A DNA stretch of 64,000 nucleotides from a bacterium (GTDB taxonomy: Bacteria > Patescibacteriota > CPR2 > UBA1875 > JAJYID01). The position numbers were made by a program, and so were the translations under genes. Below, one piece after another: positions 9,452 through 60,082 of the stretch (position 1 is the stretch's first letter; every line of letters starts with the position of its first letter). The notes beneath the pieces are model-generated. The model had not been told where the DNA came from. It made no database searches and saw nothing but the letters and a program-made list of their open reading frames with translations. The stretch is from contig JAUSJO010000002.1 of assembly GCA_030647205.1 (NCBI GenBank), positions 305,771 to 369,770 of the forward strand. The letters run 5' to 3'.

Positions 9452-9886
9452 GTGAAAATTATTGAGATTAGCTCAAAAGTAGCCCGAGTAGAGCAGATGG
9501 TTTATTGTAAAGAGAGCGATGGTAGTAAGATTATCATTTGTGATCCTGAAGGGAATATTGTTCGTAATCCCGTCTCTCATAAGGAAATGATTTATTTCGG
9601 TCAAGAGGCAGGGCTGTTTGTTTTCGATTTACCGGTCAAAGACGGTTTTTACGTTAGCCTTTGGCTCGGAAGAATTTATAATGATCTCTTTGTTCTTAAA
9701 CACCCCCTTACAGAAGAGAACAAAGCGGGAGATACAACAGAGCCCATCTTTAACCACTGGTCGGATAGAGGTGGGGAAGAAAAGAAAGAGGAACTTGAGC
9801 CATTTCGGTCGGCTATTATGAGGCTAAGGGATCCTGAAAAAGAGTGTTATCACTGTGAGCTCGTTGCTTCGATCCCTCCATCTTAA
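9452..9886 (+). CDS. hypothetical protein
   Basis: A 144-aa ORF in an otherwise empty region, with two weak hairpins plus T-runs downstream (9884-9960). Confidence 0.4.
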   Translation: MKIIEISSKVARVEQMVYCKESDGSKIIICDPEGNIVRNPVSHKEMIYFGQEAGLFVFDLPVKDGFYVSLWLGRIYNDLFVLKHPLTEENKAGDTTEPIFNHWSDRGGEEKKEELEPFRSAIMRLRDPEKECYHCELVASIPPS

Positions 9887-21419: not shown

Positions 21420-21853
21420 AAAAGTTTCATATGTTGACGAGCTGATGATTCCTTGGAGAAACTGAGTAATTTTTTTATTCATTACTATCTCCAGAAAACT
21501 CTTGCCGTTGAGGCAGAATTTCCCTATTATAGTAGTAATGTTTTAGCTTTAAACCTAAAGAATAATTTTTCGGGGGGCGATTGAAGTATAAAGAACGTAA
21601 GGTAAAGAGCACGAAAAGTAAGATTATAGCATACATAGCAAGGTGTTCGGCTTTTGTATGTAAAAATACTGAGCAGTCTTGTAGTTTAGCTAAGCACTCA
21701 TGGCTATGCCGTGAAAAGAAGGTAGTAGTCTTCCCTATTAGGGAGTTACTTAAGGTATTTTATTTCTTAAAAAATATATTTGTTCTCCTGCGTCTTGTTT
21801 ACTATGAACTGCTTTATTTCGCACACTTAAGGGTTAGATTCTTACATGATCAG

Positions 21854-24800
21854 ATGTATCAAGGTAATAAGACCTATAAAAAAGTAAATGATTTTAAGTA
21901 TACAAGGCCTATTCGCAAGGCAACAATCCTGGGGTTTGTTATATCGTTTTTCATTTTTCAGGTTATGGGAAGTCTCTGGCCGGAGATTTTTAACCCCGCC
22001 CACCCCAAGGTAGCAGAAGGCGGAAGCAACACTGTTACTTGGACGACAGATGCTGACTTTAACGCAGGCACTACTAAAAGCGGTGTTAAGGTTCAGAGTG
22101 ACAGTGTGACGCTAAATGATCCTGATATTATCCCTGAAGTAAAAGCGTCTGGGAATGACCTCTATGCCGTTCGCTTTTTGGATACTAATAATGGATACGC
22201 AGTTGGAATGAGCGGCCTTCTTTTAAAAACTATAGATGGCGGTGTCAACTGGTCAACAAAAAACCCGGGAACTAGTAATAATTTAAATGAAATTTATATA
22301 GTAGATGCTAACATATCTTATGTGGTGGGAGATGGCGGTGTCATTAGGAAAACGACAGACAGCGGAACGACATGGGCCACTCAAACTTCCGGAACAACAA
22401 ATAACTTAAATGGCGTTTACTTTACAGACGCAAACACCGGTTATGTGGTTGGAGATTCTGGAACAATCAAAAAAACCACAGATGGGGGTACAAACTGGGT
22501 TGCCCAGACTTCAGGGACAACCTATGCCTTTGAGGATATCTTTTTTGTCGGTGGTAGTACAGGATATGCTGCCGGATCAAACGGGTCTATATATAAAACT
22601 TTAGACGGAGGCACAAACTGGGTTATCCAGGCTACAGCAGCCGGTACTTCTTATAATTCAATATACTTCACAGACGCAAATACGGGTTATGCACCAGGTA
22701 ATATTGTTCTTAAAAAAACCACAGACGGAGGCACAAACTGGACCACCAACTACTCACTTAGCGGGAACACATGGTATGGGGTACACTTTGCTGACGCAAA
22801 TACTGGTTACGTGAGTGGTTCTAGTGGCAAGGTAAGAAAAACTATAAATTCGGGTACAAGCTGGACAGATCAGACTACGGGGTTTGGAGCGGGTAATGTT
22901 TATGACATTTACTTTACAGATGCTAATAACGGTTATGCAGTCGGGGCTAGCGGCAAGATTATAAAAACCACGAATGGCGGTGCAAACTGGACTTTGAAAA
23001 CTTTGAGTGTGACAGGTAACAACCTAAATAGTACTTACTTCACAGACTCAAATACCGGCTATGCAGTAGGGAACTCGGGCACTATCTTAAAAACTACAAA
23101 TGGTAGCGCGAGTTGGTCGGCCCTAACGTCTGGGACGTCAAGCGTCTTAAATGGTGTTTACTTTACGGATAACAATACTGGATACGCGGTTGGTGCAAGT
23201 GGTCTTATAAGGAAAACCACAGATGGGGGAGCGAACTGGGTTGCCCAGACTTCAGGGACAACCTATGCCTTATATGGCATACATTTTACAGATGCAAGTA
23301 CCGGGTATACAACGGGGGATAATGGGACGATATTAAAAACCACAGATGGGGGAGCGAACTGGGTTGCCCAGACTTCAGGGACGACGGGCTATTTTAGGGA
23401 CGTTTACTTCACAGATGCTAACACCGGCTTTCTTGCAGGAAGATACGGTATATACAAGACCACAAATGGGGGCACAAACTGGTCTTCAGTCTCTGGCTCT
23501 GATATCTATTTAAACAGCATGTATTTTACAGATGCAAATACCGGATATGCAGTCGGTAACAGTGGGACAATCATAAAAACCACAAATGGTGGTGCAAACT
23601 GGGCTGCCCAGACCTCAGGGACGACAAATCAGTTAAATAGTACTCATTTTACAAGTGCTAGCACTGGTTACATAGTTGGTGTTAACGGTACTATTCTTGA
23701 GACAAATGATGGGGGCACAAACTGGTCGTTGACGTCTGTGGGTACGTCTTTAAGTAGCGTTTATTTTACAGATGCTAACACCGGTTATGCAGTTGGTAGT
23801 ACTGGGTTTATTTTGAAGTTTTATCCTCAATATGCTACTTCGGGGGATATCTCTGGACTTAAGGTAGATGCAGGAGAAGGGGCAAAGGCGAACTGGTCTA
23901 GTATCACCAATAGCTCAACACTACTATCTAATACGTCAGTAAGTTTTCAGACAAGAGGCTCAGACGATAACTCTACTTGGTCCGGGTGGCAATCTCTAAG
24001 CGGTGAGACGATCCAAACTGCGGAGTATAGATATTTAGAAGTCAAAGCAACTTTGTCAACTTCTGACGGGCTACACACCCCATCGCTTAATGATCTTACG
24101 GTTACTTATGACAATCTCGAAGCCCCAGTAAATAGTAATATCACTTTAACAAAAACTGATGGTACGGCACTTAAAACAAGTGCGGGGGATGACCTGGCTG
24201 GCGGTGTAGCCGGAGGCTGGACAAATGCAACCACTGTTAGGTTAACGGCAACCGGCTTAACATGTGGGCAAGGAACTCCTGAAAATCCGACCTGTGGTTC
24301 AAGCTCGACAAACAGAAGACCTGAGGTTGAAATCAAAGAAATGGGAACTGTTTTTGATGGGGCTGTAACATATGAGGCAGTTAGTGGTAATAGCTATGTG
24401 GATGTGGCCTTGCCGGGGATTCCAGTCACAGGACAAGAATATCATATACGTGCAAGGAGTATTGACGATGAGGGCAAAGCGTCTGGATGGACTCAATATG
24501 CTAGCGATACTGCGGCTATTACGTATGATAATACTCCCGCAGGAGTATTTAATATCTCTACGCCCGCAGATAATAACTGGGGGACGGCAAGACCTACCTT
24601 TACTTGGGCTAGCACCTCTGATGCTAACTCTGGTATCAATAAATACCAGCTATACATAGATGGCGCACTAGATACCGACAATATTTCGGCGGTAGCCACT
24701 TCAGTTCAGGCAACAAACTCACTTATTGATGGAAGTCATACTTGGTATGTAAAGGCTGTCGATAATGCCGGTAATGCAAGGCAATCAACCAGTACATTTA

Positions 24801-27800
24801 CAGTCAATATAGACACTAGTGCACCGACATCATTCAACTTATCGACCCCGGCGAACAATTCATGGACAAACAACACTGGACCCACCCTGACATGGACAGC
24901 TTCTTCTGACCCGCATTCGGTCTTAGCAAAATACCAACTATATATCAACGGTAGCTTAAATAGAGACAACATTTCTTCAGTTGCTACCTCAACTACACCA
25001 ACAGGGTCTCAAACAGGAACATACTCATGGTATATAAAAGCAATAAATAATGCCGGCGGTGAGACAAATTCGGCGACCTATACTATCAACTATGACAACG
25101 CAGCCACATTCCCGTCACCTTTTGTAGCCAGCAGCAATGATGCGGAAAAGGTAGTCGTCTCATGGTCAGATCAAAATACAGGCGCTCCGACTGATACGTT
25201 CACAGTTCACAGGGTTAAGAAGTCAGAGTATGATAGTAACTCTTGGACAAAGGACAGTGATTGGAGTACAGGAACGGATTATGGCGTCTTTACAATTGCA
25301 GGAGGGGTTGGCGTCCTAAATGACAGTTCTCTTGGAGCGGTTCAAGGTCAGCCAATCATCTCTCAGTCGGTAAATTATGTCTACAAAATAAAATCAACGG
25401 ATACAGCTGGTAACGCATCCGGTTGGTCCAGCGTTGTTATCGGAAGAACAACCGATACAGCCGATCCTCAGGATCCATCTACCGTGACAGCAGTTGCTTG
25501 TGACGGAACGGCTCCGAACTGTTCAAACATTCTCAATAAGGGCTATGAAATCAAGCTGGCTTGGGCGGCCTCCAATGATTTTGGTTCAGGAGTGACCGGT
25601 TATAAAGTTTATAGAAATACGGCAAACTCTACAGATCCAAGTACATTTGCACTGGTCGGATATCTCGATGTACCAACACCGGGGGCTCCTGTTAGTACTG
25701 TCTACTATGATAATGACGCAAACAATGATAAACACGATTTCACTGACACTATAAATGAACAACAGGTAAGTATAAAAGCTGCCGCAACAGGGAGATTAAA
25801 TGATTACGTTAACTACTATTATAGGATAGTGGCGGTGGACGCTGTAGGAAACGAGACCAACATTATTACAACTGAAGGGCTAGGGTTACCAAACTACACT
25901 AACTATGCCACCGCAAGGACCCCTGACGTAACTTCTCCTTCGACCCCTCAGAATGTAGTTGTTACGCCTATGGGCCTTGACTCATCTGGTGGCGCTCAGC
26001 GAGTTGATGTTACCTGGAGTACTTCAACTGATATTACCAGTAGAAACGCAGGAGCAAGCGGTTCCGGGATTGCCGGATATAAAGTGATGCAATGTCAGGG
26101 TGACGGCACATTCTGTACTGATGATGGTAACTATAGTCAAATTGGTACAACATCCTCGACTAACTACACGAAAGAAGGCCTTGGAGAGTTCACTTGGTAT
26201 TACTATAAAATTATTGCTGTAGACAAGGCATCGTCAGCAACTATAACAGATACTTCTAATAACAGTTCAGCAAGAAGCTCATCGGCCTCAGTAAAAACAG
26301 CTTCAAATACAGTGCCAACGGTACCACTTTCCGTGAATGTAACGACAAAAACCGGTGATCCAAATACAGATAGCGATGTTGGTCATCAAAATACTGTTAC
26401 ATTTAACGGGTCATATGCCAAAAACTGTGCCGGTGGTGAACGCTGTGTTACGGGATACGAGATTTATCGCTCTACTGATAACTTTGCTTCAAGTTCGTTA
26501 AAAATTGCAGACGTTTCTATAGGTGCAGTTGGGGATGAAAGGAGTGTCACTTATACCTATATAGATAATAACTCGACGAACGATGCAACGGCGCCATCGA
26601 TTTCCAGAAGTTCAGGCGGAACTCCAGCTTTGAGTAAAGCACAAACCGCTCATTTGGTTGATGCAGCGACATATTATTATAAAGTGAAATCAAAAGACAA
26701 CACTCCAACAGTTCCCGACGGAGGACCATTTACTTCAGGCATGTCTTCGGTGGCTGTCGGTACTCTTCATGCTGGTTGGGATACAACCCCAGATGCAACA
26801 GATCCAGATGTCCCCCAAAGTGTAGCTGTAAAAAATATTCATCCAAATGACTCAATGGTTAGAAATATTATCACATGGACAATGATTCCGGATTCTACCA
26901 GAAACGGAACAAGTGACTTCTCAAAGTACCAGATCTATCGTTATGAGGTTCTGTTGGGCAGTGGTACGGCGACACTTATTGCAGAGAAAACTGATCGGGG
27001 AGATAACTATCATGTTGACGGGATTACAAACGGCCAAAAGGATAAAGATTATGCATATTATGTTGTAGCGGTAGACAATGCAGGGACAGACTTCAAATAT
27101 GCAAACGGGCAAATCATAAATCCTACATCCAACACGAGCAGCCATATAGCAACAGTTTCGATAAATCCTGGGGCAGTGAATCCTAGCGTATCAGGCACTA
27201 CAGTTGCGAGCACGGGCGTATCATCTGCTACTATAAACTGGTCTACGAACCAAGAGACAGATTCATTGGTAGAGTATAAGGTAAAAGATTCAAATGATGT
27301 GATTGCGGCAGGGAAAGACAGAACCCAACCGACAACAAGCCATTCTGTCTCCCTAGGAAACTTGAGCAAAGGTGTTGCTTACCAATATAGGATTGTCAGC
27401 CGTAACTCACTTGGTAATATTGATGAGTCTGCCGCAAATACATGGAAAGAGTTCTCAACCCAGGATTTTTATATATCAGATAATACTGTTTTGACCACTA
27501 CATCTACGGCGACTATAAGTTGGAACACAAACATCGACTCTGACTCATATGTGGAGTATAAACCGGAAGGATCATCAGAAAAGTATGAGGTTGCCGGTGA
27601 TGCTGTTCCGACGAAAAACCACGAGGTAACACTTAAGGGTTTGGTGCCGAACAGTCATTATACATATAATCTTCGTTCCGTCACTTCTGATAAATATATT
27701 GTTACAAAAAATCTCGATACCTTTAAAACCCGCGACAACGATCTCGATAAATTCAGAATTACACCGGGGGAAACCAATGTTTCGGAACAAAATATTACGG

Positions 27801-28726
27801 CGACTACAACTCAGATTACATGGACCACAACGGTTGCGACTACTTCATGGGTTGAGTATGGAACTGAGGTTGGAGTTTACTCGATGAGCGCCGGTGATAA
27901 TGATTTAAATACCCTGCATGCTGTTAAACTCACAAACTTGAGGCCAGGGACAAAGTACTTCTATAGAGTAAGGGGCAAAGATGAAAATGGTGTTGAACTC
28001 TTCTCGCCGGAATCATCATTTACTGCTATACTTATGCCCGAGATTTCAAACCTCAAAGTTAGAGACTTTAGCCCGTATACAGCAACGATTACATTTGATA
28101 CAAACGTTGAAACAGTTGTATCACTAAACTACGGCAAAGACACTAGCTATGGGTCAAGCGTGACTGTCGCAAAAGCGGAGAAAAATCACGTCATTACTCT
28201 TAAAGAACTTGACGATAACGCAACATATCATTTCCAGGCGTCTGCTACGGATCAGTTCAAAAACAATATTAAGTCTTCCGATATGATATTCTCAACCCCG
28301 CTTGATACCCAAGGACCGGAGGTGTCGGAGCTCAAAGTTGATGTTTTGCCTGTTTCTGACGCATCAGAGACAGCATCGGTTATCATTTCCTGGACAACAG
28401 ATAAGCCTGCAACAACGCAGGTGGAGTACGATGACAAGGGTGGCGGGGAAAAATATGAAAACCACACTATAGAAAACGCTACCTTAAATACGTCTCATAC
28501 GGTTTTGATCAAAGACCTAAATACATCGGCTAACTATAGATTTAGGATTATATCTAAGGATAAGAGAAATAATCTGACCAAAACGAAAGCTTCAAACTTT
28601 ATCACCCCGACAAAAGAAAAGTCACTGCTTCAGATAATTATAAAATCATTCGAAGATACATTTTCTTGGACAAAGAATGTTCCGCAGTTTTTTGGTAAAA
28701 TAGGAAATCGGCTAATGGGTCAATAG
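21854..28726 (+). CDS. giant cell-surface protein (2,291 aa): signal anchor, ~20 Ycf48/BNR-like Asp-box beta-propeller repeats, then Fn3-like and purple-acid-phosphatase-N-like domain arrays
   Basis: Repeats of type YAVGxSGxIxKTTDGGxNW(x)QTSGTT run from ~22150 to 23750. The remainder is Ser/Thr-rich. About six modules of type TxATISWxTNxxSDSxVEYxxxxS…YxYRxxS run from 26700 to 28500. The start is taken at ATG 21854 (MYQGNK…, followed by an anchor helix). The in-frame ORF extends upstream to 21581. Confidence 0.8.
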   Translation: MYQGNKTYKKVNDFKYTRPIRKATILGFVISFFIFQVMGSLWPEIFNPAHPKVAEGGSNTVTWTTDADFNAGTTKSGVKVQSDSVTLNDPDIIPEVKASGNDLYAVRFLDTNNGYAVGMSGLLLKTIDGGVNWSTKNPGTSNNLNEIYIVDANISYVVGDGGVIRKTTDSGTTWATQTSGTTNNLNGVYFTDANTGYVVGDSGTIKKTTDGGTNWVAQTSGTTYAFEDIFFVGGSTGYAAGSNGSIYKTLDGGTNWVIQATAAGTSYNSIYFTDANTGYAPGNIVLKKTTDGGTNWTTNYSLSGNTWYGVHFADANTGYVSGSSGKVRKTINSGTSWTDQTTGFGAGNVYDIYFTDANNGYAVGASGKIIKTTNGGANWTLKTLSVTGNNLNSTYFTDSNTGYAVGNSGTILKTTNGSASWSALTSGTSSVLNGVYFTDNNTGYAVGASGLIRKTTDGGANWVAQTSGTTYALYGIHFTDASTGYTTGDNGTILKTTDGGANWVAQTSGTTGYFRDVYFTDANTGFLAGRYGIYKTTNGGTNWSSVSGSDIYLNSMYFTDANTGYAVGNSGTIIKTTNGGANWAAQTSGTTNQLNSTHFTSASTGYIVGVNGTILETNDGGTNWSLTSVGTSLSSVYFTDANTGYAVGSTGFILKFYPQYATSGDISGLKVDAGEGAKANWSSITNSSTLLSNTSVSFQTRGSDDNSTWSGWQSLSGETIQTAEYRYLEVKATLSTSDGLHTPSLNDLTVTYDNLEAPVNSNITLTKTDGTALKTSAGDDLAGGVAGGWTNATTVRLTATGLTCGQGTPENPTCGSSSTNRRPEVEIKEMGTVFDGAVTYEAVSGNSYVDVALPGIPVTGQEYHIRARSIDDEGKASGWTQYASDTAAITYDNTPAGVFNISTPADNNWGTARPTFTWASTSDANSGINKYQLYIDGALDTDNISAVATSVQATNSLIDGSHTWYVKAVDNAGNARQSTSTFTVNIDTSAPTSFNLSTPANNSWTNNTGPTLTWTASSDPHSVLAKYQLYINGSLNRDNISSVATSTTPTGSQTGTYSWYIKAINNAGGETNSATYTINYDNAATFPSPFVASSNDAEKVVVSWSDQNTGAPTDTFTVHRVKKSEYDSNSWTKDSDWSTGTDYGVFTIAGGVGVLNDSSLGAVQGQPIISQSVNYVYKIKSTDTAGNASGWSSVVIGRTTDTADPQDPSTVTAVACDGTAPNCSNILNKGYEIKLAWAASNDFGSGVTGYKVYRNTANSTDPSTFALVGYLDVPTPGAPVSTVYYDNDANNDKHDFTDTINEQQVSIKAAATGRLNDYVNYYYRIVAVDAVGNETNIITTEGLGLPNYTNYATARTPDVTSPSTPQNVVVTPMGLDSSGGAQRVDVTWSTSTDITSRNAGASGSGIAGYKVMQCQGDGTFCTDDGNYSQIGTTSSTNYTKEGLGEFTWYYYKIIAVDKASSATITDTSNNSSARSSSASVKTASNTVPTVPLSVNVTTKTGDPNTDSDVGHQNTVTFNGSYAKNCAGGERCVTGYEIYRSTDNFASSSLKIADVSIGAVGDERSVTYTYIDNNSTNDATAPSISRSSGGTPALSKAQTAHLVDAATYYYKVKSKDNTPTVPDGGPFTSGMSSVAVGTLHAGWDTTPDATDPDVPQSVAVKNIHPNDSMVRNIITWTMIPDSTRNGTSDFSKYQIYRYEVLLGSGTATLIAEKTDRGDNYHVDGITNGQKDKDYAYYVVAVDNAGTDFKYANGQIINPTSNTSSHIATVSINPGAVNPSVSGTTVASTGVSSATINWSTNQETDSLVEYKVKDSNDVIAAGKDRTQPTTSHSVSLGNLSKGVAYQYRIVSRNSLGNIDESAANTWKEFSTQDFYISDNTVLTTTSTATISWNTNIDSDSYVEYKPEGSSEKYEVAGDAVPTKNHEVTLKGLVPNSHYTYNLRSVTSDKYIVTKNLDTFKTRDNDLDKFRITPGETNVSEQNITATTTQITWTTTVATTSWVEYGTEVGVYSMSAGDNDLNTLHAVKLTNLRPGTKYFYRVRGKDENGVELFSPESSFTAILMPEISNLKVRDFSPYTATITFDTNVETVVSLNYGKDTSYGSSVTVAKAEKNHVITLKELDDNATYHFQASATDQFKNNIKSSDMIFSTPLDTQGPEVSELKVDVLPVSDASETASVIISWTTDKPATTQVEYDDKGGGEKYENHTIENATLNTSHTVLIKDLNTSANYRFRIISKDKRNNLTKTKASNFITPTKEKSLLQIIIKSFEDTFSWTKNVPQFFGKIGNRLMGQ

Positions 28727-37648: not shown

Positions 37649-39157
37649 ATGAGTAAACTAATAAATAAATTTAAAAAGAAAGTGGTAGTACTTGCGAGTG
37701 TGATGCTTGTCTTGCAGCCGCTTTTGGGACTGGCAGTTTTGCCGGCAAATACATTGGCTGCAGATCCTTGTATAGGTCTAAACAGCGACGTTGTCATCAA
37801 TGAAGTTTATGTTGATGCTACCGCTGCCAACGATAATGATAGTGAGTTTATTGAACTATACAATAACTCTGCTAGCTCTTGCGTTGATATTAGCGGATGG
37901 AAGATTCAGACTGATGGTGGTGGTGTTGCCGATGCTACATTGCCAGCAAGTACGAAAATATCTGCACAGGGTTATTATTTAATAGCTGATAATGGTTGGG
38001 CGGCTTCTAGAGATAATATGTCATGGCCGCTTGCCGATAATGATGAGTATGAATTAGACCTCAATAATTCAGACGCTGGGATTGCTCTGGTTGATGACTC
38101 TGCGGAGCCAGTTGTAATAGATGCAGTTGGATATGGAACACCGGCTGAAATATGGGGCGGTTTCGAGGGAACGACTCCAATGGCAAATGCTGACGTAGTA
38201 AATCCTAATAGTATTGCGAGGATTCCTGCCGGTACTGATACTGACGAAAATTCAGATGACTTCTTTCCTGGTACTCCAACACCAAAGAGTTCAGATATCG
38301 TTGCGCCGGTTGTTACTGGAGTGGAAGACGAGAAATATTATAGTGATAGTGTAACTCCTGTATTTACCGAAGGAACCGGTACTCTATCTCAAGATGGTGG
38401 TCCGGCAGATCCATTTACAAGCGGAACATCGGTCACTTCAGAAGGATCCTACGTTTTAACTGTAACTGATGCAGCAGGGAATGCGACAACTGTAAATTTC
38501 GTAATTGACACAACTAAGCCGGCATTTACCTCAACAGTTACTCCGAAGATTGCCGGGCCGGGTGTAAAAACAGTTGATATTACAATTACTACGAATGAAC
38601 CGTTAAAATCTCAGGTTGGACCAGAAGGAGCGTATGAACTTATGTTAGTCATCAACGAACCGGGTGGTACTCTGACTACTGTATACCTCAATCATGACAT
38701 AAGCGACCCGACAGGGAAGACATTTACATATGCTTATACAATCCAAACCGCTGGCAAAAAACATGTTTCAATGAACGTTGGTGGAACTAACTTGGCTGGT
38801 CTTGGTAATTTCGGATCTGCAGTAGATGGTTTCGATATTGACAATATTGTTCTCTCGCCGGTAGTTACTACTCCTACAACTTCTGTAGTTACTGCGGTTG
38901 CGACTGTACCGGTTGATGAGCAGTTTGGTGGTGGTTCTTCTTCTGATCAGGGTGAAGTGAAAGCAGATACAACCATAAAGACAGACGATGGAAGCAAGAC
39001 CGATGATAGCAATCAGCAAAAAGATGATGTAAAGGGTAAAAAGAATATTCCACTTTGGGGTATCATATTCTTACTTATCCTAGCTGGGATTGGCGGTTAC
39101 CTCTTCTACTCACAAAATCCTGATAAGCCTTCCGGTAGATCAAACGGAAAGAAGTAA
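37649..39157 (+). CDS. secreted/surface protein with lamin-tail domain (LTD) and C-terminal membrane anchor
   Basis: A signal peptide is followed by the LTD motif VVINEVYVD…EFIELYNNSASSCVDISGWKIQ. Ser/Thr-rich regions follow, then a C-terminal TM helix (IPLWGIIFLLILAGIGGYLFY). Confidence 0.65.
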   Translation: MSKLINKFKKKVVVLASVMLVLQPLLGLAVLPANTLAADPCIGLNSDVVINEVYVDATAANDNDSEFIELYNNSASSCVDISGWKIQTDGGGVADATLPASTKISAQGYYLIADNGWAASRDNMSWPLADNDEYELDLNNSDAGIALVDDSAEPVVIDAVGYGTPAEIWGGFEGTTPMANADVVNPNSIARIPAGTDTDENSDDFFPGTPTPKSSDIVAPVVTGVEDEKYYSDSVTPVFTEGTGTLSQDGGPADPFTSGTSVTSEGSYVLTVTDAAGNATTVNFVIDTTKPAFTSTVTPKIAGPGVKTVDITITTNEPLKSQVGPEGAYELMLVINEPGGTLTTVYLNHDISDPTGKTFTYAYTIQTAGKKHVSMNVGGTNLAGLGNFGSAVDGFDIDNIVLSPVVTTPTTSVVTAVATVPVDEQFGGGSSSDQGEVKADTTIKTDDGSKTDDSNQQKDDVKGKKNIPLWGIIFLLILAGIGGYLFYSQNPDKPSGRSNGKK

Positions 39158-42906: not shown

Positions 42907-43126
42907 ATCTATTAGTATTTCAGTACAAAAAAAGGAGGGGTAACAAATCTGGAAATTCCAATGCTTGGGATAGACAGAGCAGTATTATTTTGTGCGTTAA
43001 AAATACTAACAGATGAATGGGACCTTGAAAATCGAAAAGTAGAGAAAATTTAAATCACGTCAATGTAAATCTTGAGTAATTTATTACTCATAAACTTTTA
43101 GGAAATTTTTTAAAATTTCCATTTTT

Positions 43127-44579
<1,453 letters not shown>

Positions 44580-44806
44580 AGGGAGATATCCCATTCAATT
44601 GGGACTACTTCCAGGTTGAGTCCCGCACATATTTTGCATTATGTTTAAGCAGTTAAAGATAGTGTGGAATATGTGCGGGGTTAGTGATATAAGTTTTTCT
44701 CTACTTTCCGGGCTTCAAGGTCATAACAAAAAGATTGATTTTCAAGGTAAAAACGGTTAAAATATTGAAGTTAAAACCGTTTTTATTTGTTTTAATGTAT
44801 TGATTG

Positions 44807-44883
<77 letters not shown>

Positions 44884-44899
44884 AAGAAAGGAGGTAGGA

Positions 44900-45118
44900 A
44901 TGAGTTTCATCCTAAGGCTTTTTATTAGTCTTGTTGCCGGAGGAATAGGCTTGGTTTTGTTAGTAAAAACCAGAAGAGTTGTCCATCAAGTTGGGTATAT
45001 AAACTGGGCAGAACAGCATCTTGGAGGAGGCGGCACTTATATACTAATAAAGTTTCTTGGCTTACTGGTTATGGTGATAGCAGTTTTTTTCTTGCTAGGT
45101 GTCATAAAAATTTTCTAG
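44900..45118 (+). CDS. small two-TM membrane protein (72 aa) encoded between tRNA-Ile and tRNA-Ala
   Basis: A strong SD (AAAGGAGGT) lies 5 nt ahead of the ATG. Two hydrophobic helices are present. Confidence 0.4.
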   Translation: MSFILRLFISLVAGGIGLVLLVKTRRVVHQVGYINWAEQHLGGGGTYILIKFLGLLVMVIAVFFLLGVIKIF

Positions 45119-45180
45119 TTTTTCGACTGTCATAGTTTATTGTTAGCAATTCGTATTGTATATTAAGTTTAATATGTCAT

Positions 45181-45256
45181 GGGCCCTTAGCTCAGTTGGT
45201 AGAGCGCCTCGCTTGCACCGAGGAGGTCAGGAGTTCGAACCCCCTAGGGTCCACCA
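45181..45256 (+). tRNA. tRNA-Ala (anticodon TGC)
   Basis: Acceptor GGGCCCT with the G3:U70 Ala identity pair, anticodon loop CTTGCAC, encoded CCA. There is one A·C mismatch in the T-stem as I read it. Confidence 0.85.
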
Positions 45257-45374: not shown

Positions 45375-47852
45375 ATGAGATATAATCTAATAATGTTATC
45401 AGGATTAACCCAAAAAGAAGCTAGCAGTCGTCTAAAGGCAAATGGTTATAATGAACTTCCTTCTGCTAAACCAAGGAAACTGACAGATTTTTTAGTAGAA
45501 ATTATAAAAGAACCAATGATCTCCCTCCTTTTGGTGGCATGTGTTTTATATTTATTTTTAGGAGATAAAGTTGAAGCAGCTCTACTGCTCCTTTCGATCG
45601 CTGGCGTAGTCAGCATCTCTCTTTATCAAGAGAAAAAGTCAGAAAAATCTTTGCAGGCTTTAGCTAGTCTTTCAAGCCCTAGGGCCATAGTTATAAGAGA
45701 TGGTGAAGAAATAAGAATACCCGGAAGAGAGGTGGTAGTTGGAGATTTAGTAATTTTAGCTGAAGGAGACAGGGTGCCGGCAGATGTCGAGCTAAAAGAG
45801 GCGGTTAACTTAAGCGTTGATGAATCGTTATTAACAGGGGAGTCGCAGTCCGTAAGTAAAAATATAAATCAAGATTCTAAAGTATTTTCAGGAACAATGG
45901 TTATTAGCGGACATGGTTTTGGTGAAGTTAAGGGGATCGGGCTTGATACCGAGCTTGGTAAAATTGGCAAATCTTTACGCTCAATTGAAATTGAAAAAAC
46001 ATTACTCCAAAAAGAAATAAAAACTTTTGTTAAGTGGATAGCTATTATCGGAATTTCTTTGTGTGTTATCTTAGCTATAATTTCTATACTGACTGGAATG
46101 AGCTTTATTGAAGGAACGTTAGCGGGCCTAACCCTGGCAATAGGTATTCTTCCGGAAGAATTTCCGATTGTTTTAATCTTGTTTATGACTATGGGAGCTT
46201 GGAGACTAGCAAAGCATAATGTACTTACCAGAAGAGCGGCGGCAATTGAAACATTGGGGGCGGCGACTGTCCTTTGTGTTGATAAGACAGGGACGATTAC
46301 TAAAAATCAGATGTCGATTGAAAAAATATTTACAAATGGTGGAATAGATCTAAACGATTTTGCTACTGATGAAGGTGTGATTAAATACGGTATTTTAGCA
46401 AGCCAACGAAAACCTTTCGATCCGATGGAGTCAGCCTTCATACATGAGGGCAAAAAGTTATTTGACACAGATGTTTTATTTGATGAGTTTAGTTTGGTCA
46501 AAGAATATCCGATAGAGAATAGTTTTCTTTGTGTTGCCCATGCTTACCAAGGAATAGATAAGGGGTTTGAGGTTGCTCTCAAAGGTGCCCCCGAGTCAGT
46601 GCTTGAGCTGTGCCATGTTACGGAAAAAGAAAAAAGAATGGTTGAAAATGAAGTTAAGAAATTTGCGAAAGAGGGCTTAAGAGTAATTGCGGTGGCAAGC
46701 GGTCACCATCATGGTAAATATCTGCCAGAAAATAGGCATGATATTCAGTTCAATTTCCTAGGTTTAGTTGGGTTAAAGGACCCTGTTCGGAAAGGGGTTA
46801 AGGACTCTGTTCGATCTGCTTATGATGCCGGTATTAGGATAATTATGATTACCGGTGACTATAAAGAAACGGCCTTAGATATTGCAAGGCAAATAGGGTT
46901 AGTAACCGAAGGAGTTGTTATTGGTGATGAGTTTGAGGCGATGAATGGAAAGGAACGAGAAGCTACTCTAAAGAAAGTCAATGTATTTAGCCGAGTAAGG
47001 CCAAACCAAAAACTCTTAATAATAAAAGAACTAAAGAGTATGGGCGAGGTAGTGGCAATGACGGGGGATGGAGTTAACGATGCCCCAGCCCTAAAAGCTG
47101 CTAATATCGGTGTGGCCATGGGAAGAAGGGGAACTGATGTAGCTAGAGAGGCGGCTGCTATTGTGCTTTTAGATGATAACTTTAACTCTATTGTTGGCGG
47201 AGTGAAAATGGGCCGAAGAATTTATGACAATCTTCAGAAGGCAATAAATTATTTGATATCGGTACATATACCCATAGTGATACTCTCAATTTTGCCCGTA
47301 ATCTTTGGCGTGCCATTCATTTTAATGCCTGTGCATATTGTATTTTTAGAGTTTATCATTGATCCCACTTGTACAATTGTATTTGAGGCTGATAAGGAGG
47401 ATAGAGATATTATGAATCGCCCACCAAGAAAACTAGACCAAAGAATAATTGCTTTTAAGAACCTATACGCCTCAATTATTAACGGTAGCATAATTGGGAT
47501 CATTCTTTTTATTAGTTACATGATTACTTTCCAAAAATTTGGTGAAACTATAGCGAGAACCTTTACTTTTATTATGCTTGTATTCCTAATACTTGCCCTG
47601 ATGATAGTTAATCTTTCGAGAAAAGAGAATTTTATTTCAAAGCTAAAAAGAAATGATAACTTCGCATTGATTGGGGTTGTGTCTTTTACTTTGGTTGTTA
47701 TGTATTTTGCTACGCATATAGAAAACATAATGAACGTCTTTCGTTTCGGGAGTTTGGTAACATTCCAATGGGTTCAGATTATCGGTGTCGCCATCGGATT
47801 TCTCTTGTTAAATGAAATTACCAAGTCTCTTAATGGGTCCTGTAAAAACTAA
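45375..47852 (+). CDS. P-type cation-transporting ATPase (type II, Ca2+/Mg2+-like)
   Basis: Contains DKTGTITKN, MITGDYKETA and GDGVNDAPALKAANIGVAMG, plus TM helices. The true start may be the Met at 45393. Confidence 0.85.
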   Translation: MRYNLIMLSGLTQKEASSRLKANGYNELPSAKPRKLTDFLVEIIKEPMISLLLVACVLYLFLGDKVEAALLLLSIAGVVSISLYQEKKSEKSLQALASLSSPRAIVIRDGEEIRIPGREVVVGDLVILAEGDRVPADVELKEAVNLSVDESLLTGESQSVSKNINQDSKVFSGTMVISGHGFGEVKGIGLDTELGKIGKSLRSIEIEKTLLQKEIKTFVKWIAIIGISLCVILAIISILTGMSFIEGTLAGLTLAIGILPEEFPIVLILFMTMGAWRLAKHNVLTRRAAAIETLGAATVLCVDKTGTITKNQMSIEKIFTNGGIDLNDFATDEGVIKYGILASQRKPFDPMESAFIHEGKKLFDTDVLFDEFSLVKEYPIENSFLCVAHAYQGIDKGFEVALKGAPESVLELCHVTEKEKRMVENEVKKFAKEGLRVIAVASGHHHGKYLPENRHDIQFNFLGLVGLKDPVRKGVKDSVRSAYDAGIRIIMITGDYKETALDIARQIGLVTEGVVIGDEFEAMNGKEREATLKKVNVFSRVRPNQKLLIIKELKSMGEVVAMTGDGVNDAPALKAANIGVAMGRRGTDVAREAAAIVLLDDNFNSIVGGVKMGRRIYDNLQKAINYLISVHIPIVILSILPVIFGVPFILMPVHIVFLEFIIDPTCTIVFEADKEDRDIMNRPPRKLDQRIIAFKNLYASIINGSIIGIILFISYMITFQKFGETIARTFTFIMLVFLILALMIVNLSRKENFISKLKRNDNFALIGVVSFTLVVMYFATHIENIMNVFRFGSLVTFQWVQIIGVAIGFLLLNEITKSLNGSCKN

Positions 47853-48039
47853 ACTGCATATTTCTTTTCGTAATAGAAACTCTTGGCATCATCAATTAGT
47901 TTAATCGTTCTCTACATCTCAAATCTGATTTTCTCATCTGTTTCTAAGCGCAAAAAGAAAAAGTTGCCGTAGAAAAGATAATCTCCCAGGTTCCATCAAG
48001 CACAAGTTATTAGAAGGCTTTTAAGGAGGTATTTTTTTG

Positions 48040-48087
48040 ATGTTAAGAAATGGTTGCCTTGAAAATAAAACTAAAATTATGGTATAA
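48040..48087 (+). CDS. candidate 15-aa peptide ORF (MLRNGCLENKTKIMV)
   Basis: A strong SD (AAGGAGGT, 48023-48030) lies 9 nt ahead of the ATG. The stop is 7 nt before the radical-SAM start. The sequence overlaps the TGGTATAAT motif at 48079-48087. Confidence 0.25.
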   Translation: MLRNGCLENKTKIMV

Positions 48088-48094
48088 TATAGTT

Positions 48095-48937
48095 ATGAAG
48101 ATAAAAGAAGTTAGGCATTTATTAACATATGGCTGTAATTTGCGTTGTCAGCACTGTTATTTGTCAGCAGGAGAAGTTGGAGATAATAAACCAGCCGACT
48201 TAAGTCAAGAAGAGGTAGATCGTTTTTATCACTACTTTAAACCGGATGTTGTTTCGGCTACCGGGGGAGAGCCTCTCTTGCGTATAGAAATGGTTTACAA
48301 ACTAGCAAAAAGTCTTGCTGCCTACGGTGGCGCTCTTGAGATAGTCACGAATGGTTTTATGCTCACTAAAGGTATAGCTGATGAACTGAAAAAATTAAAT
48401 AAGAAGACATTCTTTCAGATCTCGCTTGATGGGACTAAAGATTATCATAACAAGATAAGGAAAAGCCCTCTTGCTTATGACAATGCGATGGATGCCATAA
48501 AGCTTGTTGCCGGAAAAGGCTTTGTGACCAAAGTGCGGCTTACTGCAACTAATGAGAATGTAAAACAAATTCCTAAGGTAATAGAAGCCTTGTCTAGTTT
48601 AGGAAATGAAAATATTAGGCTTGTTATTCGTCCGGTAGTGGCAAAGGGTAGAGCAAAAGCTAACGACCTAAAACTTGATATAGATTACAAGGAACTCGAA
48701 AGTTTAAAGGAACTCTCAGAAGTCATTATTGTTGAGACGACTGATAATGAAGGTAAGTGCGGTTGCGGTACAGATACTATCGCAATTGATCCATTTGGAG
48801 GTATATATCCCTGTACGTACTTTGTTTTTGATGAGAACTACAAAATGGGAAACATTTGGGATTTACCCTCAAAACTTACGGAAAATGAAGAGTTTGCCGG
48901 ATTCAAAGGAGCCTGTTATGCCAGGCAAGCAGTCTAA
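48095..48937 (+). CDS. radical SAM protein with C-terminal Cys-rich SPASM/twitch-like domain
   Basis: Contains CNLRCQHC (CxxxCxxC). The C-terminus reads GKCGCGTDTIAIDPFGGIYPCTYF…GACYAR, with four additional Cys. Confidence 0.75.
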   Translation: MKIKEVRHLLTYGCNLRCQHCYLSAGEVGDNKPADLSQEEVDRFYHYFKPDVVSATGGEPLLRIEMVYKLAKSLAAYGGALEIVTNGFMLTKGIADELKKLNKKTFFQISLDGTKDYHNKIRKSPLAYDNAMDAIKLVAGKGFVTKVRLTATNENVKQIPKVIEALSSLGNENIRLVIRPVVAKGRAKANDLKLDIDYKELESLKELSEVIIVETTDNEGKCGCGTDTIAIDPFGGIYPCTYFVFDENYKMGNIWDLPSKLTENEEFAGFKGACYARQAV

Positions 48938-50924
48938 AGTAAAATATAAGATAGAGTTGGAGTATAAAAACATCTCTGACTATAGCCCTTTTTGGAGAGT
49001 AAATGGCTTGTCTCCTGAGTATAGGAGGAAGTCTTTCGAGCTACCTTTCATTTGTTTTGAAGGAAAGTTAGTTCCGGTCCATCCCGATATGTTTTGTGAC
49101 CTTGGTCTGGGCAAAAACCTTATTGTTAAGAGAACCAAAGTCTACCCAACATCTTCATTTAGAACTGTTTTTAATGCAGAAGAAAATCTTTGTTGGAAGC
49201 TGCCCGTAAGAAGAAAGATTACACGAGGAGTACGTGATCTAAAAACAAAACAACTTCAAAGAGCAGAAAGAGTACAAACTTTATTAAAAAAATTTGATTG
49301 TCCCCACTTCTCTTTCTTGGAAGAAGAGTGTTTTTTTGCCTCAGATGAAAACTTTAACTATATAGAGAGAAAAATGCCGGCGGTAAGTGCTTATCCGTTG
49401 TTCTATGTGATTAAGGATGAAAACTTCTCAAAAAAGTTTATATTAAAAGTAATAGAAAATATCATGTATACTTGGATGTTTTGGGCAGAAAAGGGACTAT
49501 ATCTCGAATATCACACCCAAAATATCTTAGTTGATAAACATGCAAATATTATTTATAGGGATTTATCTGACGTAAGGTCCTATAAAGAAGAAATCCTAAA
49601 GCCGAGTTATATAAATGGCTTAAAGGACGAGAAGGAGTTACGCAGCCTTATGTTTGACAGATCGGTCTGCAGCCAAAATCTTGATCATTTTTTGCGTTAT
49701 AAATCCTTTACTCAAGAAGAGATTAGTTTGCTAAAAAGCATGATTCAGAAGTACTCCAACCAGTTTAAGATCGAGTTTCCTGAATATTCCTTGGATTTTA
49801 ATACAGAAGAAGATGGTAGGGTCCCTTATAAAAAAGAAATCAATCATTGGAGAGGTGATAAGAATATAAGAGCTATTAGTACATCTGAAAAAAGATTGGC
49901 CGAACTAAGGAAAGTATTTGATGGTGTAAGCGGAAACTTTACTGTGAGAGGGTCTTACGCCAGAGGAGATGACTTTTATAATGACATTGATATTGCTCTT
50001 TATTCTAATTCTTTAGATGTGTCAAAGCTACCAAGCGATTTTCGAGGGGTCAAAGTTAACTATTGGCAAATACCAGCTAAAGATATAGAGCGTTATTATG
50101 AGGTTTGTGTCAGGCCATCAATCTCATTGATTGAAGGAAAGGTGATCAAGACTACTGATCCCGAGGTAGAGGAAATTCTGGAAAGGCAGCAAAATAAATT
50201 TTATGAAGAAAGGGCAGACATATTTTTGCTTTACTTAGTTCTTGATGAAGAATCAAATAATAAGATATATGGGAGAATTCATGAGAAAGACTACTCAACA
50301 TGGAAGCGGAAAAGAGGTAGTAAAAGAACTATTTTAAGGGCAGTGTGGGCAGTAAAAACTATGTATCCTGAGATAAAAGATAGAAATGTTAATGAGGTTT
50401 TATCTTTTATGGTTCAAAAAAATATAATTTCAAAAACATTATCTGGAAAATGTCAGGAAGTCCTTGAAATGATTTTTGAGGAAGAGTTTGACGAGAAACG
50501 ATTGGAATCTCTTATAGATCAGATAGGCAGCTGGTATGAAGCGACTCTTAAGCCGCTTCTGATTAAAAAAATCTATGAAAGCCTAGATCGTGAACTGGTA
50601 GAAAATTCTCTGCTTTCTATCGATAACCAAACCTCAAAAAAAGATCTAGGAAGGATTTATGAGTTTGCTATTGGTCGTGAAAAGTCTATCGATAAATGGC
50701 TTCTTTTCTTTGGCCTTTCAAGGAACACTAACTTGGGGGAGAAGCTCCTTTTTGAAATTTATAATATGACCAAAGATGATTTCGTCTTCAACAATGTGAC
50801 TCGAAACCTCATTTTAAACGTAGCTTTTCCAAAGGAGATAATAGTAAATGATCAGATCATTTTACGTAATGATTTGACCAAAATCGCTTACAAAAAAAGA
50901 AAACTATTAGAAGCGTCTTCTTAA
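48918..50924 (+). CDS. multidomain protein: N-terminal protein-kinase-like/APH-like domain, central Pol-beta-type nucleotidyltransferase, C-terminal helical domain
   Basis: The SD (AAAGGAG) and ATG overlap the radical-SAM end by 20 nt. A kinase catalytic-loop-like segment YHTQNILVD…IIYRDLSDV is present, followed by the MNT motif GSYARGDDFYNDIDIALY. Confidence 0.5.
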   Translation: MPGKQSKVKYKIELEYKNISDYSPFWRVNGLSPEYRRKSFELPFICFEGKLVPVHPDMFCDLGLGKNLIVKRTKVYPTSSFRTVFNAEENLCWKLPVRRKITRGVRDLKTKQLQRAERVQTLLKKFDCPHFSFLEEECFFASDENFNYIERKMPAVSAYPLFYVIKDENFSKKFILKVIENIMYTWMFWAEKGLYLEYHTQNILVDKHANIIYRDLSDVRSYKEEILKPSYINGLKDEKELRSLMFDRSVCSQNLDHFLRYKSFTQEEISLLKSMIQKYSNQFKIEFPEYSLDFNTEEDGRVPYKKEINHWRGDKNIRAISTSEKRLAELRKVFDGVSGNFTVRGSYARGDDFYNDIDIALYSNSLDVSKLPSDFRGVKVNYWQIPAKDIERYYEVCVRPSISLIEGKVIKTTDPEVEEILERQQNKFYEERADIFLLYLVLDEESNNKIYGRIHEKDYSTWKRKRGSKRTILRAVWAVKTMYPEIKDRNVNEVLSFMVQKNIISKTLSGKCQEVLEMIFEEEFDEKRLESLIDQIGSWYEATLKPLLIKKIYESLDRELVENSLLSIDNQTSKKDLGRIYEFAIGREKSIDKWLLFFGLSRNTNLGEKLLFEIYNMTKDDFVFNNVTRNLILNVAFPKEIIVNDQIILRNDLTKIAYKKRKLLEASS

Positions 50925-51008
50925 GGGGGGGGTATTAGTAAGGTTTAAGACTTTACAGCATTCCTGAATTAGCGTATAATTAGCTAGTTACAAAGGCAAG
51001 GAAGATGG

Positions 51009-51042
51009 CTCGCGTGACCTTAGATATAGCGAGTTTTTTTAT
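51009..51042 (+). terminator. hairpin plus T7 run (GGCTCGCG…TAGCGAGTTTTTTTA) between the 668-aa gene and typA
   Basis: A 5-6 bp GC stem is followed by TTTTTTT. It lies downstream of a TATAAT box at ~50975. Confidence 0.4.
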
Positions 51043-51053
51043 TTAGAAAAATT

Positions 51054-52865
51054 ATGAACTTACGAAACGTTGCAATTATAGCCCATGTTGATCATGGCAA
51101 GACCACCCTTGTGGATGGTCTTTTGAAGCAGTCGAAAACTTTCCGCGAAAACGAAGCGGCTTTTTCGCAAACCTTGATAATGGACTCCAACGATCAGGAG
51201 CGTGAACGCGGCATCACGATCCTTGCAAAAAACACGGCCGTAAAGTACGGCGACACTAAAATTAACATTATCGACACGCCTGGGCATGCCGACTTTGGCG
51301 GTGAAGTAGAGCGAACATTAAACATGGCTGATGGAGCAATACTCGTTATTGACGCTCATGAAGGCCCAATGCCGCAAACAAAGTTCGTTCTCAAAAAAGC
51401 TCTCGAAATCGGACTGAAACCCATAGTTATTATAAACAAAATTGACAAGCCAAATGCACGAATAGAAGATGTCATCAAAAAAACTCACGATCTTTTTCTA
51501 GATCTGGCGACAGATGTCGACCAACTCGACTTTCCTATTTATTATGCGATTGCCAGAGATGGTAAGGCATGGAGCGAAATACCGGCGAGCCACGGCGAGG
51601 TAGCCGACTTCACCGATGTTTTTGAGGCTATTTTAAACCACGTTCCTGCGCCGGAAGTTTTGCCGGACCAGCCATTTCAGATGCTAGTTACATCACTTGA
51701 AAGCGACAGTTTTCAGGGCAAACATGTCGTGGGAAAGATTACCCGCGGTTCTATAAAGCAGGGCCAGACAGTTACTTTGATAAAGAAAGACGGCAGCACA
51801 GAACAGGCTAGGATTGATAAGGTTTATATATCGGAAGGACTTAAGAAAGCGGAAGTCGCAGAGGCTCATGCCGGTGAAATAGTTTCTCTGACTGGTGCAA
51901 AAAATGCAAGCATCGGAGAAACACTGGCTGATAGCGATCATCCGGAAGCTTTGCCGACCATAGAAATAGAAGAGCCGACTTTGAAAATGTCCGTTTCTGC
52001 AAACACTTCTCCGTTTGCCGGAAAAGAAGGTCAGTTTGTAACTGGTAGGCAGATTTTAGAAAGAATTAAAAAAGAACTTGAAACTAATGTTTCGCTGAAG
52101 ATGGAAATGGGAAAAGCCGGCGACTACATATTATCCGGTCGCGGTGAACTTCACCTTTCTGTTTTGATTGAAAACCTACGTCGTGAAGGATATGAGCTTG
52201 AAGTTGGCAAACCGCAGGTAATTACCAAGGAAATTGACGGTGTGAAATGCGAGCCGATGGAAGAACTAACCATCGATGTTGATACCGAGCATGTTGGCGC
52301 GGTGACTGCAGAAGTGGGCAGGAGAAAAGGTAATATGCTAAGTCAGGAGGAAAACTCTGACGGCACAACAAGATTAGTTTTTGCAATATCTACCCGCGGT
52401 ATTCTCGGACTTCGAAACCAACTTCTGACATTATCTCGTGGAACTGCGATCATGAACTCTATTTTCACAGAGTTCAAGCCGGTTGGCGCTACTATTCCTA
52501 AACTTAGAAATGGCGCTCTTGTTGCACATGAGTCGGGAAAAGCAGTGGCATACGGGCTATATAATGCGCAGGGCAGAGGCATCGTATTTATCGGTCCGCA
52601 GACCCAAGTTTATGAAGGTATGATAGTCGGGCTTAACTCTCGAGAGGGCGACCTGGAAATAAATGTGACGAAGGAAAAGAAGCTTACAAATACCCGTGCA
52701 TCAGGATCTGATGACGCGCTGACCCTAACCCCACCGACAATATTTACGCTTGAACAAGCATTAGATTTTCTTGAAGACGATGAACTTCTGGAAGTAACTC
52801 CAAAAAATCTAAGGCTTCGAAAGAAACTTCTCAACAAAACAGCTCGAGCCAGAGCCAGCAGATAA
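51054..52865 (+). CDS. typA: translational GTPase TypA/BipA
   Basis: The N-terminus is [21 protein letters not shown], with G-domain motifs DTPGHADF and NKID and a characteristic C-terminal domain. Confidence 0.9.
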
Positions 52866-56875: not shown

Positions 56876-57046
56876 ATGAGGGATATTTAATACATTAAAT
56901 ATTACAAATCTATTATGCTGACTAAAGATTCAAGCTCATAAAATTAACCGTATAGATATCTTAATATGTTTTTTATGGTATAATCTAGTTTAGTGAGGGT
57001 CCGCATCGGAGGCGGATCTTTTTGGACTTTGAGGGAGGTGTTATAT

Positions 57047-57845: not shown

Positions 57846-57887
57846 AAAGATCTTAGAGGAAGAAGGTTTTGTGGTATAATTTTACCC

Positions 57888-59177: not shown

Positions 59178-60082
59178 TTTTTTATGGTATAATCACTCTT
59201 ATGTGGATAGTACTAACGCTTATATCTGCCGCGCTTTTTGCGGTAGTAAATATTTTTGACAAGATTGTTTTGAACAAATGGGTCAAAGATCCGCTTGTTC
59301 CTGCTATTGTTGTCGGTGTTATCAACCTTGTAGCGGCAGGCTTTATATTCCTGTTTCATAGTGTGCCGCATTTTTCTAGTATCAATATCTTGCTTGCTAT
59401 AGTAGTTGGCTTTTTGGGGTTTCTTTCTACTATAACCTATTACAAAGCGGTTCAGCTTGACGATATATCTCGCGTGGCCCCGCTTTTTCAGTTGGAGCCC
59501 TTATTTGTTGTAGTTTTAGCTGCCGTGTTTCTAGGCGAGGTTTTTTCCGTTTCAAAATACATCGGTGTTTTCATGTTGGTTTTAGGGGCGCTCACCATAT
59601 CTTTAAAAAGTTTTAAGAGTTTGAGACTAGGCAAGTCGTTTTGGTTAATGGTTTTAACAGGATTTATTATCTCTATATCTCTTGTCTTGTATAAAAGGTT
59701 GCTTGACTACGGCGATTTCTGGACGGTTTTTGCCTATTCCCGTATCGGGATGATCCCCGTGCTTACTTTTGTCGTTTATAAAAGTTTTAAAAATCTTTTA
59801 GATACTGTCAAATGTCATGGTAAAAGATGTTTGTTTTTAATGACAGCCGGAGAAAGTTTGGGCGTTGTGGCTATGTTCTTTTCTATAGCCGCTTTTGCTG
59901 TCGGTACAGCCACACTAGTTAATGCACTCGGCTCGGTACAGCCCCTCTTTCTACTATTTTTCAGTATAATCCTTAGTCTTTTTCTCCCTAGAATATTTTC
60001 CGAAGAGATAAAAAAAGGAGTATTACTCCAAAAAATATTTGCTGTAGCTCTCTTGATAGTTGGCGGTTTGCTGGTAGTATAA
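59174..60082 (+). CDS. EamA/DMT-family transporter (10 TM)
   Basis: Two EamA-like repeats of hydrophobic helices are present. The true start may be the Met at 59201, just downstream of TGGTATAAT at 59185-59193. Confidence 0.7.
   Translation: MIFYGIITLMWIVLTLISAALFAVVNIFDKIVLNKWVKDPLVPAIVVGVINLVAAGFIFLFHSVPHFSSINILLAIVVGFLGFLSTITYYKAVQLDDISRVAPLFQLEPLFVVVLAAVFLGEVFSVSKYIGVFMLVLGALTISLKSFKSLRLGKSFWLMVLTGFIISISLVLYKRLLDYGDFWTVFAYSRIGMIPVLTFVVYKSFKNLLDTVKCHGKRCLFLMTAGESLGVVAMFFSIAAFAVGTATLVNALGSVQPLFLLFFSIILSLFLPRIFSEEIKKGVLLQKIFAVALLIVGGLLVV

Follow-up and report, generated by a model that had tools for sequence, protein, structure and literature searches.

What would a bacterium with a very small genome make with a radical S-adenosylmethionine (SAM) enzyme whose gene runs into that of a large fusion protein ending in a predicted nucleotidyltransferase (NTase)? 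The question is raised by a stretch of 64,000 nucleotides (nt), hereafter the window, which spans positions 305,771 to 369,770 of contig JAUSJO010000002.1 (assembly GCA_030647205.1) from a Patescibacteriota bacterium of the CPR2 lineage. The radical SAM gene (48095..48937, plus strand, ATG at 48095) encodes 280 amino acids (aa) and overlaps by 20 nt a second gene (48918..50924, plus strand, ATG at 48918) encoding 668 aa. An earlier note, made from the sequence alone, had grouped these two genes with a 15-codon open reading frame (ORF) ending 7 nt before ATG 48095, and its positions and strings for all three, including the gap and the overlap, proved correct. Our analysis indicates that the large protein begins with a predicted half-size ligase of the siderophore-synthetase type, that this ligase core and the radical SAM enzyme are inherited together across very different hosts, and that the short ORF most likely has no part in the cassette. 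We tentatively propose that the encoded enzymes act on a small metabolite.

A half-size ligase core of the IucA/IucC type

The N-terminal ~320 aa of the 668-aa protein (48918..49877, plus strand) had been described as an APH/protein-kinase-like segment. This region matches the Pfam family IucA_IucC (PF04183) at 31 bits, above the gathering score of 25, over profile positions 126-180 of 239 only, and a weak or partial match to the same family is also found in the homologous cores. Once a profile of 14 cores was aligned to IucA, the motifs PTSSxRT and HTQNILV...YRD corresponded to IucA residues 260-306 and 418-447, and in the hidden Markov model alignment the core (~310 aa) covers roughly IucA residues 185-545. 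Residues S80, R82, T83, K94, R106, H199, Q201, N202 and D215 are invariant in the 14 cores. The nonribosomal peptide synthetase-independent siderophore (NIS) synthetases bind ATP and Mg through S275, R277, K291, R303, R370, H440, E/Q442, N443 and D460 in DesD numbering (PMC9356276). The elements Ser-x-Arg-Thr, Lys, Arg, His-x-Glu/Gln-Asn and Asp have invariant counterparts in the core, and the spacing suggests that DesD R370 corresponds to core R151. The catalytic motif is the HxQN of NIS enzymes, not the HxD...N of kinases. Because of these conserved residues and the IucA_IucC match, we replace the kinase-like label with that of an ATP-dependent adenylating ligase related to the NIS synthetases, whose activity is predicted.

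The core is truncated. It lacks the N-terminal thumb domain, which to our knowledge is present in all characterized NIS synthetases, gives no match to the FhuF-like family PF06276, and does not have the three-domain layout of thumb, fingers and palm (~550-620 aa). A distant canonical NIS synthetase (L015) carries the IucA_IucC and FhuF regions and the thumb domain. Distant stand-alone relatives (P0118, P0140 and P0104) have no radical SAM gene on their contigs, which are short and uninformative as to context. As a separate observation, there are short IucA/IucC-like proteins of ~360-410 aa (P0118, P0140, P0152 and P0159; loci L039-L044) that have part of the FhuF region and whose genes lie beside no radical SAM gene but, for example, next to dnaG-rpoD; shortened NIS-like proteins may be commoner than the literature on siderophores implies.

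A minimal twitch-type radical SAM enzyme

The identity given earlier to the 280-aa protein was confirmed. It matches Radical_SAM (PF04055) at 8e-23, and the cysteines C14, C18 and C21 of its cluster motif CNLRCQHC are invariant, so that both the CX3CX2C motif and the radical SAM core are present. Near the C-terminus C222, C240 and C274 are invariant as well, forming a Cys-x(n)-G-x4-C hairpin and a tail, with C220 as a possible fourth. Since only these residues are conserved, the C-terminal extension fits a twitch-type domain with one auxiliary Fe-S cluster. Of the seven-Cys SPASM motif for two auxiliary clusters only part is present, and the SPASM family (PF13186) reaches 18.9 bits, below its gathering score of 21.5. 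The protein has no RRE (RiPP recognition element, where RiPP stands for ribosomally synthesized and post-translationally modified peptide) or PqqD-like peptide-recognition domain, given that the Fe-S motif begins at residue 14, nor does a partner protein supply one.

Curated families do not claim this enzyme. All NCBIfam matches lie far below their cut-offs; among the best 25 of 81, the highest is PapB (92 bits against 340), and neither HemW nor QueE, the housekeeping families named in the earlier note as possible counterevidence, occurs. The RiPP-maturase models (PapB, StsB, CefB, SCIFF, AlbA and others) are all missed by a wide margin, the archaeal MoaA model gives 60 bits against a cut-off of 325, and a QueE-like PHROG family is matched at only 33 bits. 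Among 5.8 billion proteins, the relatives of the enzyme comprise 58 clusters at 213 bits or above (42-60 % identity), and the next match scores 75 bits, a drop that makes the clade sharply bounded. In the PDB comparison, CteB is matched at 1.7e-20 and viperin at ~7e-4.

The enzyme and the ligase core are inherited as a pair

Loci were gathered from scans of species-representative genomes, from metagenome scans and from contig look-ups. They yielded 25 distinct cassettes with both the radical SAM gene and the core complete, the window included, in addition to partial or duplicate loci. In all 25, and in every partial locus with upstream DNA, a twitch-type radical SAM gene (~280 aa) lies immediately 5' of the core, and at the homologous loci it overlaps the next gene or ends within ~30 nt of it. 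The co-occurrence of the two genes, which the earlier note had put forward as a check, therefore holds at every testable locus, and it does so in unrelated neighborhoods. All-against-all clustering of the ORFs from 40 loci returned the radical SAM enzyme and the core as the only two gene families shared across loci, with no third conserved gene among them; likewise, no conserved protease, exporter, leader peptidase or defense partner was found near the cassette loci. The pairwise identities of the two proteins are correlated (r = 0.73), a value matched by none of 2000 Mantel permutations.

The family is very rare and patchily distributed. Relatives of the large protein form only 19 clusters among 5.8 billion proteins, and strong matches to the core amount to ~15 representatives among 1.84 billion. 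Neighboring genes are mostly housekeeping and differ at each locus: comEC and rpsO-pnp; PBP2 and mraY; dxs; clpP, nrnA and infB; an archaeal-type LonB and a Hel308-like helicase; or a threonyl-tRNA synthetase with an archaeal editing domain. The host GC content of the loci ranges from 22 to 53 %. The metagenome-assembled genomes were labeled by their submitters as anything from Bacilli to Gammaproteobacteria and Methanosarcinales, labels that are unconfirmed, and the cassette is present in small-genome bacteria and apparently also in archaea. Within the window (40 % GC) the cassette is slightly lower, at 34-39 %; a value barely under the mean gives no clear signal of recent transfer. A phage origin was rejected, as no relatives were found in viral contigs and PHROGs returned generic radical SAM families only.

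A nucleotidyltransferase that changes place and form

The C-terminal ~350 aa of the 668-aa protein (49878..50924, plus strand) contain a Pol-beta-type catalytic motif, GSYARGDDFYNDIDIAL (nt 49941-49985, plus strand), followed by a HEPN-like helical domain, an arrangement similar to that of GlnE and KNTase. The order of core and then NTase-HEPN is shared by the window, P0002, L024 and L033. Twelve loci show a domain permutation, with an NTase-helical region of ~400 aa placed before the core in one protein; the long form is a separate gene in L016/L017/L021 (one cassette), L010 and L011; and eleven loci have an NTase of ~170-210 aa between the radical SAM enzyme and the core, either separate or fused. 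The short form of L018 passes PF18765 at 1.7e-8. A common origin of the three forms was sought with hhalign, which found no alignment beyond the catalytic GS..DxD motif. The MntA model gives the NTase 17 bits against a cut-off of 60, and no Rx4-6H HEPN nuclease motif was found on reading the helical tail of the 668-aa protein. The catalytic motifs are intact in all three modules, and the repeated fusion of the NTase in different arrangements points to a physical or pathway link with the pair.

Other associations of this module touch on its chemistry. In L033, a 1.67-Mb contig, the ligase core and the NTase-HEPN gene are separated by a gene for a CobC/PGAM-type histidine phosphatase (8908-9621), a hint that an intermediate may carry a phosphate or nucleotidyl group. 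Outside the cassette, relatives of the long NTase (P0113, P0137, P0150 and P0233) form fusions with HAD phosphatase, GNAT acetyltransferase or sulfotransferase domains and appear in their own right as an uncharacterized family of bifunctional tailoring enzymes. Separately, the NTase and the core are adjacent ORFs in L010 (2898-4969), L011 (2335-4650) and L013 (5456-6906) and a single fused gene in close relatives; these splits may be true gene fission or assembly frameshifts.

The short upstream ORF and a probable leaderless promoter

The 15-codon ORF, MLRNGCLENKTKIMV (48040..48087, plus strand, ATG to TAA), is preceded by AAGGAGG (48023-48029, plus strand) 10 nt upstream of ATG 48040, and the earlier note saw in it a Cys-containing peptide, with one of the strongest Shine-Dalgarno (SD) sequences, as an element of the cassette. 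Neither claim was confirmed. The window contains 13 copies of AAGGAGG where 10.75 are expected, so the motif is not enriched, and among 22 homologous loci compared no small upstream ORF is conserved in sequence, length or position. Moreover, the best promoter-like site within 47700-51200 is of the sigma-70 type (48059..48088, plus strand; 11 of 12 matches plus the TG extension), with TTGAAA, an 18-nt spacer and the extended -10 element TGGTATAAT, and codons 7-15 of the ORF fall across its -35 to -10 region.

This promoter ends 6 nt before ATG 48095, which implies a leaderless mRNA, and the radical SAM gene is probably transcribed as such from its own promoter; the 15-codon ORF would then be located 5' of the transcription start, across the promoter. 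Other genes of the window show the same arrangement. Where 3.2 copies of the box TGNTATAAT are expected, the window has 10, a number attained in none of 100 shuffles; nine of these copies are on the plus strand, and in six of the nine a start codon follows after 5-8 nt and opens an ORF of 159-530 aa that lacks an SD (2601-2609, 8138-8146, 48080-48088, 56976-56984, 57872-57880 and 59185-59193, all plus strand). This distribution suggests that genes in this genome are commonly expressed from leaderless mRNAs. The second gene of the cassette has an SD of its own, AAAGGAG (48905..48911, plus strand), read from the sequence 6 nt 5' of ATG 48918 and inside the 3' end of the radical SAM gene.

In homologues of the radical SAM enzyme the start codon either coincides with that of Met-1 in the window (MRLKEVRHL, MEIKEVRHL) or lies 8-12 codons further 5', in many cases behind a separate SD. 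The ORF is most likely a chance reading frame across the promoter or the relic of an older start site; the second option is speculative and is raised because in L019, a close relative, an AAGGAGG precedes the radical SAM ATG by 8 nt. A well-placed SD and a short Cys-containing ORF can in this way falsely suggest a RiPP precursor.

Proposed function and alternatives

The explanation we favor, tentatively and at a little under an even chance, is that the three enzymes act in sequence on a small non-peptide metabolite and make or tailor a conjugate. The step order, the small-molecule substrate and the chemistry of each module are what we infer. The two genes would form a self-contained operon with its own promoter, expressed from a leaderless mRNA, whose three enzyme modules are inherited as a unit. 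The miniature NIS core would bind Mg-ATP, adenylate a carboxylate and hand the acyl group to an amine or hydroxyl; the radical SAM enzyme would carry out a radical step on the same molecule, such as dehydrogenation, decarboxylation or formation of a C-C or C-S bond; and the NTase would transfer a nucleoside monophosphate to a hydroxyl of the same substrate or of an intermediate. The product could be a conjugate linked to a nucleotide or phosphate. A small substrate is preferred because all characterized IucA/IucC enzymes, as far as we know, act on small acids, because relatives of the NTase accompany small-molecule tailoring domains and phosphatases, and because the loci show nothing that suggests a peptide.

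Several observations weigh against this proposal. Four loci (L006, L020, L029 and L030) have no NTase beside the pair; the core of L006 is a stand-alone protein of 309 aa. The nearest structures to the radical SAM enzyme are the peptide and protein maturases SkfB, SuiB, anSME and CteB, and the closest folds to the NTase half of the window protein, GlnE, DrrA and MntA (MNT-HEPN), all modify proteins. A core without a thumb might also differ in activity from the characterized NIS synthetases. Finally, the loci show no conserved accessory gene (transporter, regulator or precursor supply), so that "small molecule" rests on exclusion and analogy.

Modification of a macromolecule is a serious rival precisely because the best structural matches of both enzymes are protein-modifying ones, which for the NTase are GlnE, DrrA and the MNT-HEPN pairs, all AMPylators of proteins. 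Under this rival, which we judge unlikely but by no means negligible, the radical SAM enzyme and the ligase would alter a protein or RNA encoded elsewhere, for instance by side-chain cross-linking or oxidation together with acid/amine ligation. To the companion idea that a GlnE/MntA-like NTase AMPylates the target or regulates the enzymes we give the same limited credence. The housekeeping neighbors found in these small genomes (rpsO-pnp, infB-rbfA, typA and thrS) and the absence of biosynthetic ones would suit such a role. It is countered by the lack of an RRE domain and of a conserved target gene in cis, by a large partner protein with no invariant cysteine, by a rarity and patchiness unlike those of a core modification enzyme, and by the small acids used by the characterized IucA/IucC enzymes. 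A RiPP pathway would have as its precursor the 15-aa Cys peptide, or the product of some other small ORF, which the radical SAM enzyme would modify before it is ligated or nucleotidylated. This reading draws on the same sactipeptide-type maturase folds and on an ideally spaced SD before an ORF with a Cys residue. Its main basis disappears with the absence of the ORF, or of any conserved small ORF, from the 22 homologous loci. With the ORF overlapping the promoter of a probably leaderless mRNA, an AAGGAGG count at chance level, and no RRE, leader peptidase or exporter, the precursor role was rejected and the RiPP reading is largely refuted; we regard it as very improbable.

The remaining two explanations, also raised by the earlier note, are minority possibilities. 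A conflict or anti-phage module, in which a viperin-like radical SAM enzyme, the NTase and the ligase stop an invader by making an altered nucleotide or a nucleotide conjugate, is in our view decidedly unlikely. PADLOC models match neither the core nor the NTase, and its pVip model gives the radical SAM enzyme 54 bits through the generic radical SAM core only; a viperin or other defense assignment was therefore set aside. Unlike viperin, the enzyme has an auxiliary cluster, and it resembles SPASM/twitch enzymes more closely than it does viperin; the neighbors are mostly housekeeping and not defense islands, and the cassette is absent from viral contigs. More doubtful again is detoxification or antibiotic modification, by which an ANT-like NTase and a kinase-fold ligase would inactivate a xenobiotic and the radical SAM enzyme would alter the drug. 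The relevant family matches reach only 15-17 bits against cut-offs of 60-400, the catalytic motif is of the NIS type and not of the kinase type, and we know of no resistance enzyme that pairs with a twitch radical SAM enzyme of this kind.

Relation to known systems

Each part of the cassette belongs to a known superfamily. In comparison with the NIS synthetases IucA/IucC, AcsD, SbnC, AsbB and DesD, the core has ~310 residues instead of ~600, is without a thumb and gives no Pfam match to an FhuF-like region at its C-terminus. None of its loci is a siderophore cluster: across ~30 of them the only conserved neighbors are the radical SAM gene and the NTase, and neither precursor enzymes nor an exporter or receptor recur. 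A radical SAM gene precedes the core in every case, and in most a Pol-beta NTase is joined to the core or encoded next to it. The radical SAM enzyme differs from the twitch/SPASM enzymes SkfB, anSME, CteB, MoaA, BlsE and BtrN in having no RRE or other N-terminal domain in its 280 aa, in carrying part of the seven-Cys SPASM motif while scoring below all curated NCBIfam cut-offs, and in having partner genes that resemble those of no characterized member. As for GlnE, DrrA, KNTase and the MNT-HEPN pairs, the window NTase shows no visible Rx4-6H motif and is fused to the ligase core, and elsewhere three mutually non-aligning NTase forms fill the equivalent place; neither the HEPN RNase motif nor the two-gene pair of MNT-HEPN toxin-antitoxin systems is present. 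A certain likeness exists to the prokaryotic viperins (pVips) with nucleotide kinases, in that a radical SAM enzyme with a nucleotide-handling partner is patchily distributed. Beyond the generic radical SAM similarity, however, the cassette enzyme has an auxiliary cluster, its partner is an adenylating ligase with an NTase and not a kinase, and the context is not a defense island.

Neither the core nor the NTase is covered by an NCBIfam, PADLOC or PHROG model, and full-text searches of the literature returned no report in which an IucA/IucC protein is associated with a radical SAM enzyme or an NTase. We found no described counterpart of an NIS core without a thumb, nor of the way in which this core is, in very different hosts, invariably paired with a twitch radical SAM enzyme, and the statement of the earlier note that it knew of no characterized system with this architecture holds. 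It is conceivable, if on balance doubtful, that the cassette embodies a new biosynthetic logic, in which an NIS-synthetase derivative without a thumb, a pared-down twitch radical SAM enzyme and a Pol-beta NTase of exchangeable form jointly assemble a metabolite or cofactor that is new to science, perhaps conjugated to a nucleotide, and that horizontal transfer would have spread among anaerobes with small genomes, in the Bacteria (lineages resembling the candidate phyla radiation or reduced Firmicutes) and apparently in the Archaea. If so, this would be the first role outside siderophore synthesis for the IucA/IucC fold, since siderophores are the products of every characterized IucA/IucC enzyme known to us. 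With its half-size core tied to a radical SAM enzyme and an NTase, the cassette suggests that this chemistry has another use, so far undescribed, in hosts with very small genomes and little biosynthetic capacity that apparently belong to both prokaryotic domains. The cassette is compact (two to four genes, ~3 kb), which makes direct reconstitution feasible.

Surroundings of the cassette

In the window the cassette is flanked by genes for a P-type cation ATPase (45375-47852) and the GTPase TypA/BipA (51054-52865). Beyond its 3' end come a further strong promoter-like site, TTTACA-17-TATAAT (50952-50980), and, just 5' of typA, a hairpin, GGCUCGC...GCGAG with a U7 tail (~51007-51041; fold z-score -1.25), that could be the terminator of the cassette or a leader element of typA. 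Upstream of the ATPase, positions 43123-45256 hold a complete 16S rRNA gene, tRNA-Ile(GAT), a 72-aa hydrophobic ORF and tRNA-Ala(TGC), in that order. That the ATPase and not a 23S rRNA gene follows tRNA-Ala indicates an unlinked rRNA operon. The hydrophobic ORF between the two spacer tRNAs (44900-45118), with AAGGAGG 5 nt 5' of it, is a possible small membrane protein. Further away, the window encodes giant or surface-type proteins, namely a 2381-aa ORF (21581-28726) and a 502-aa protein with a lamin-tail domain (37649-39157).

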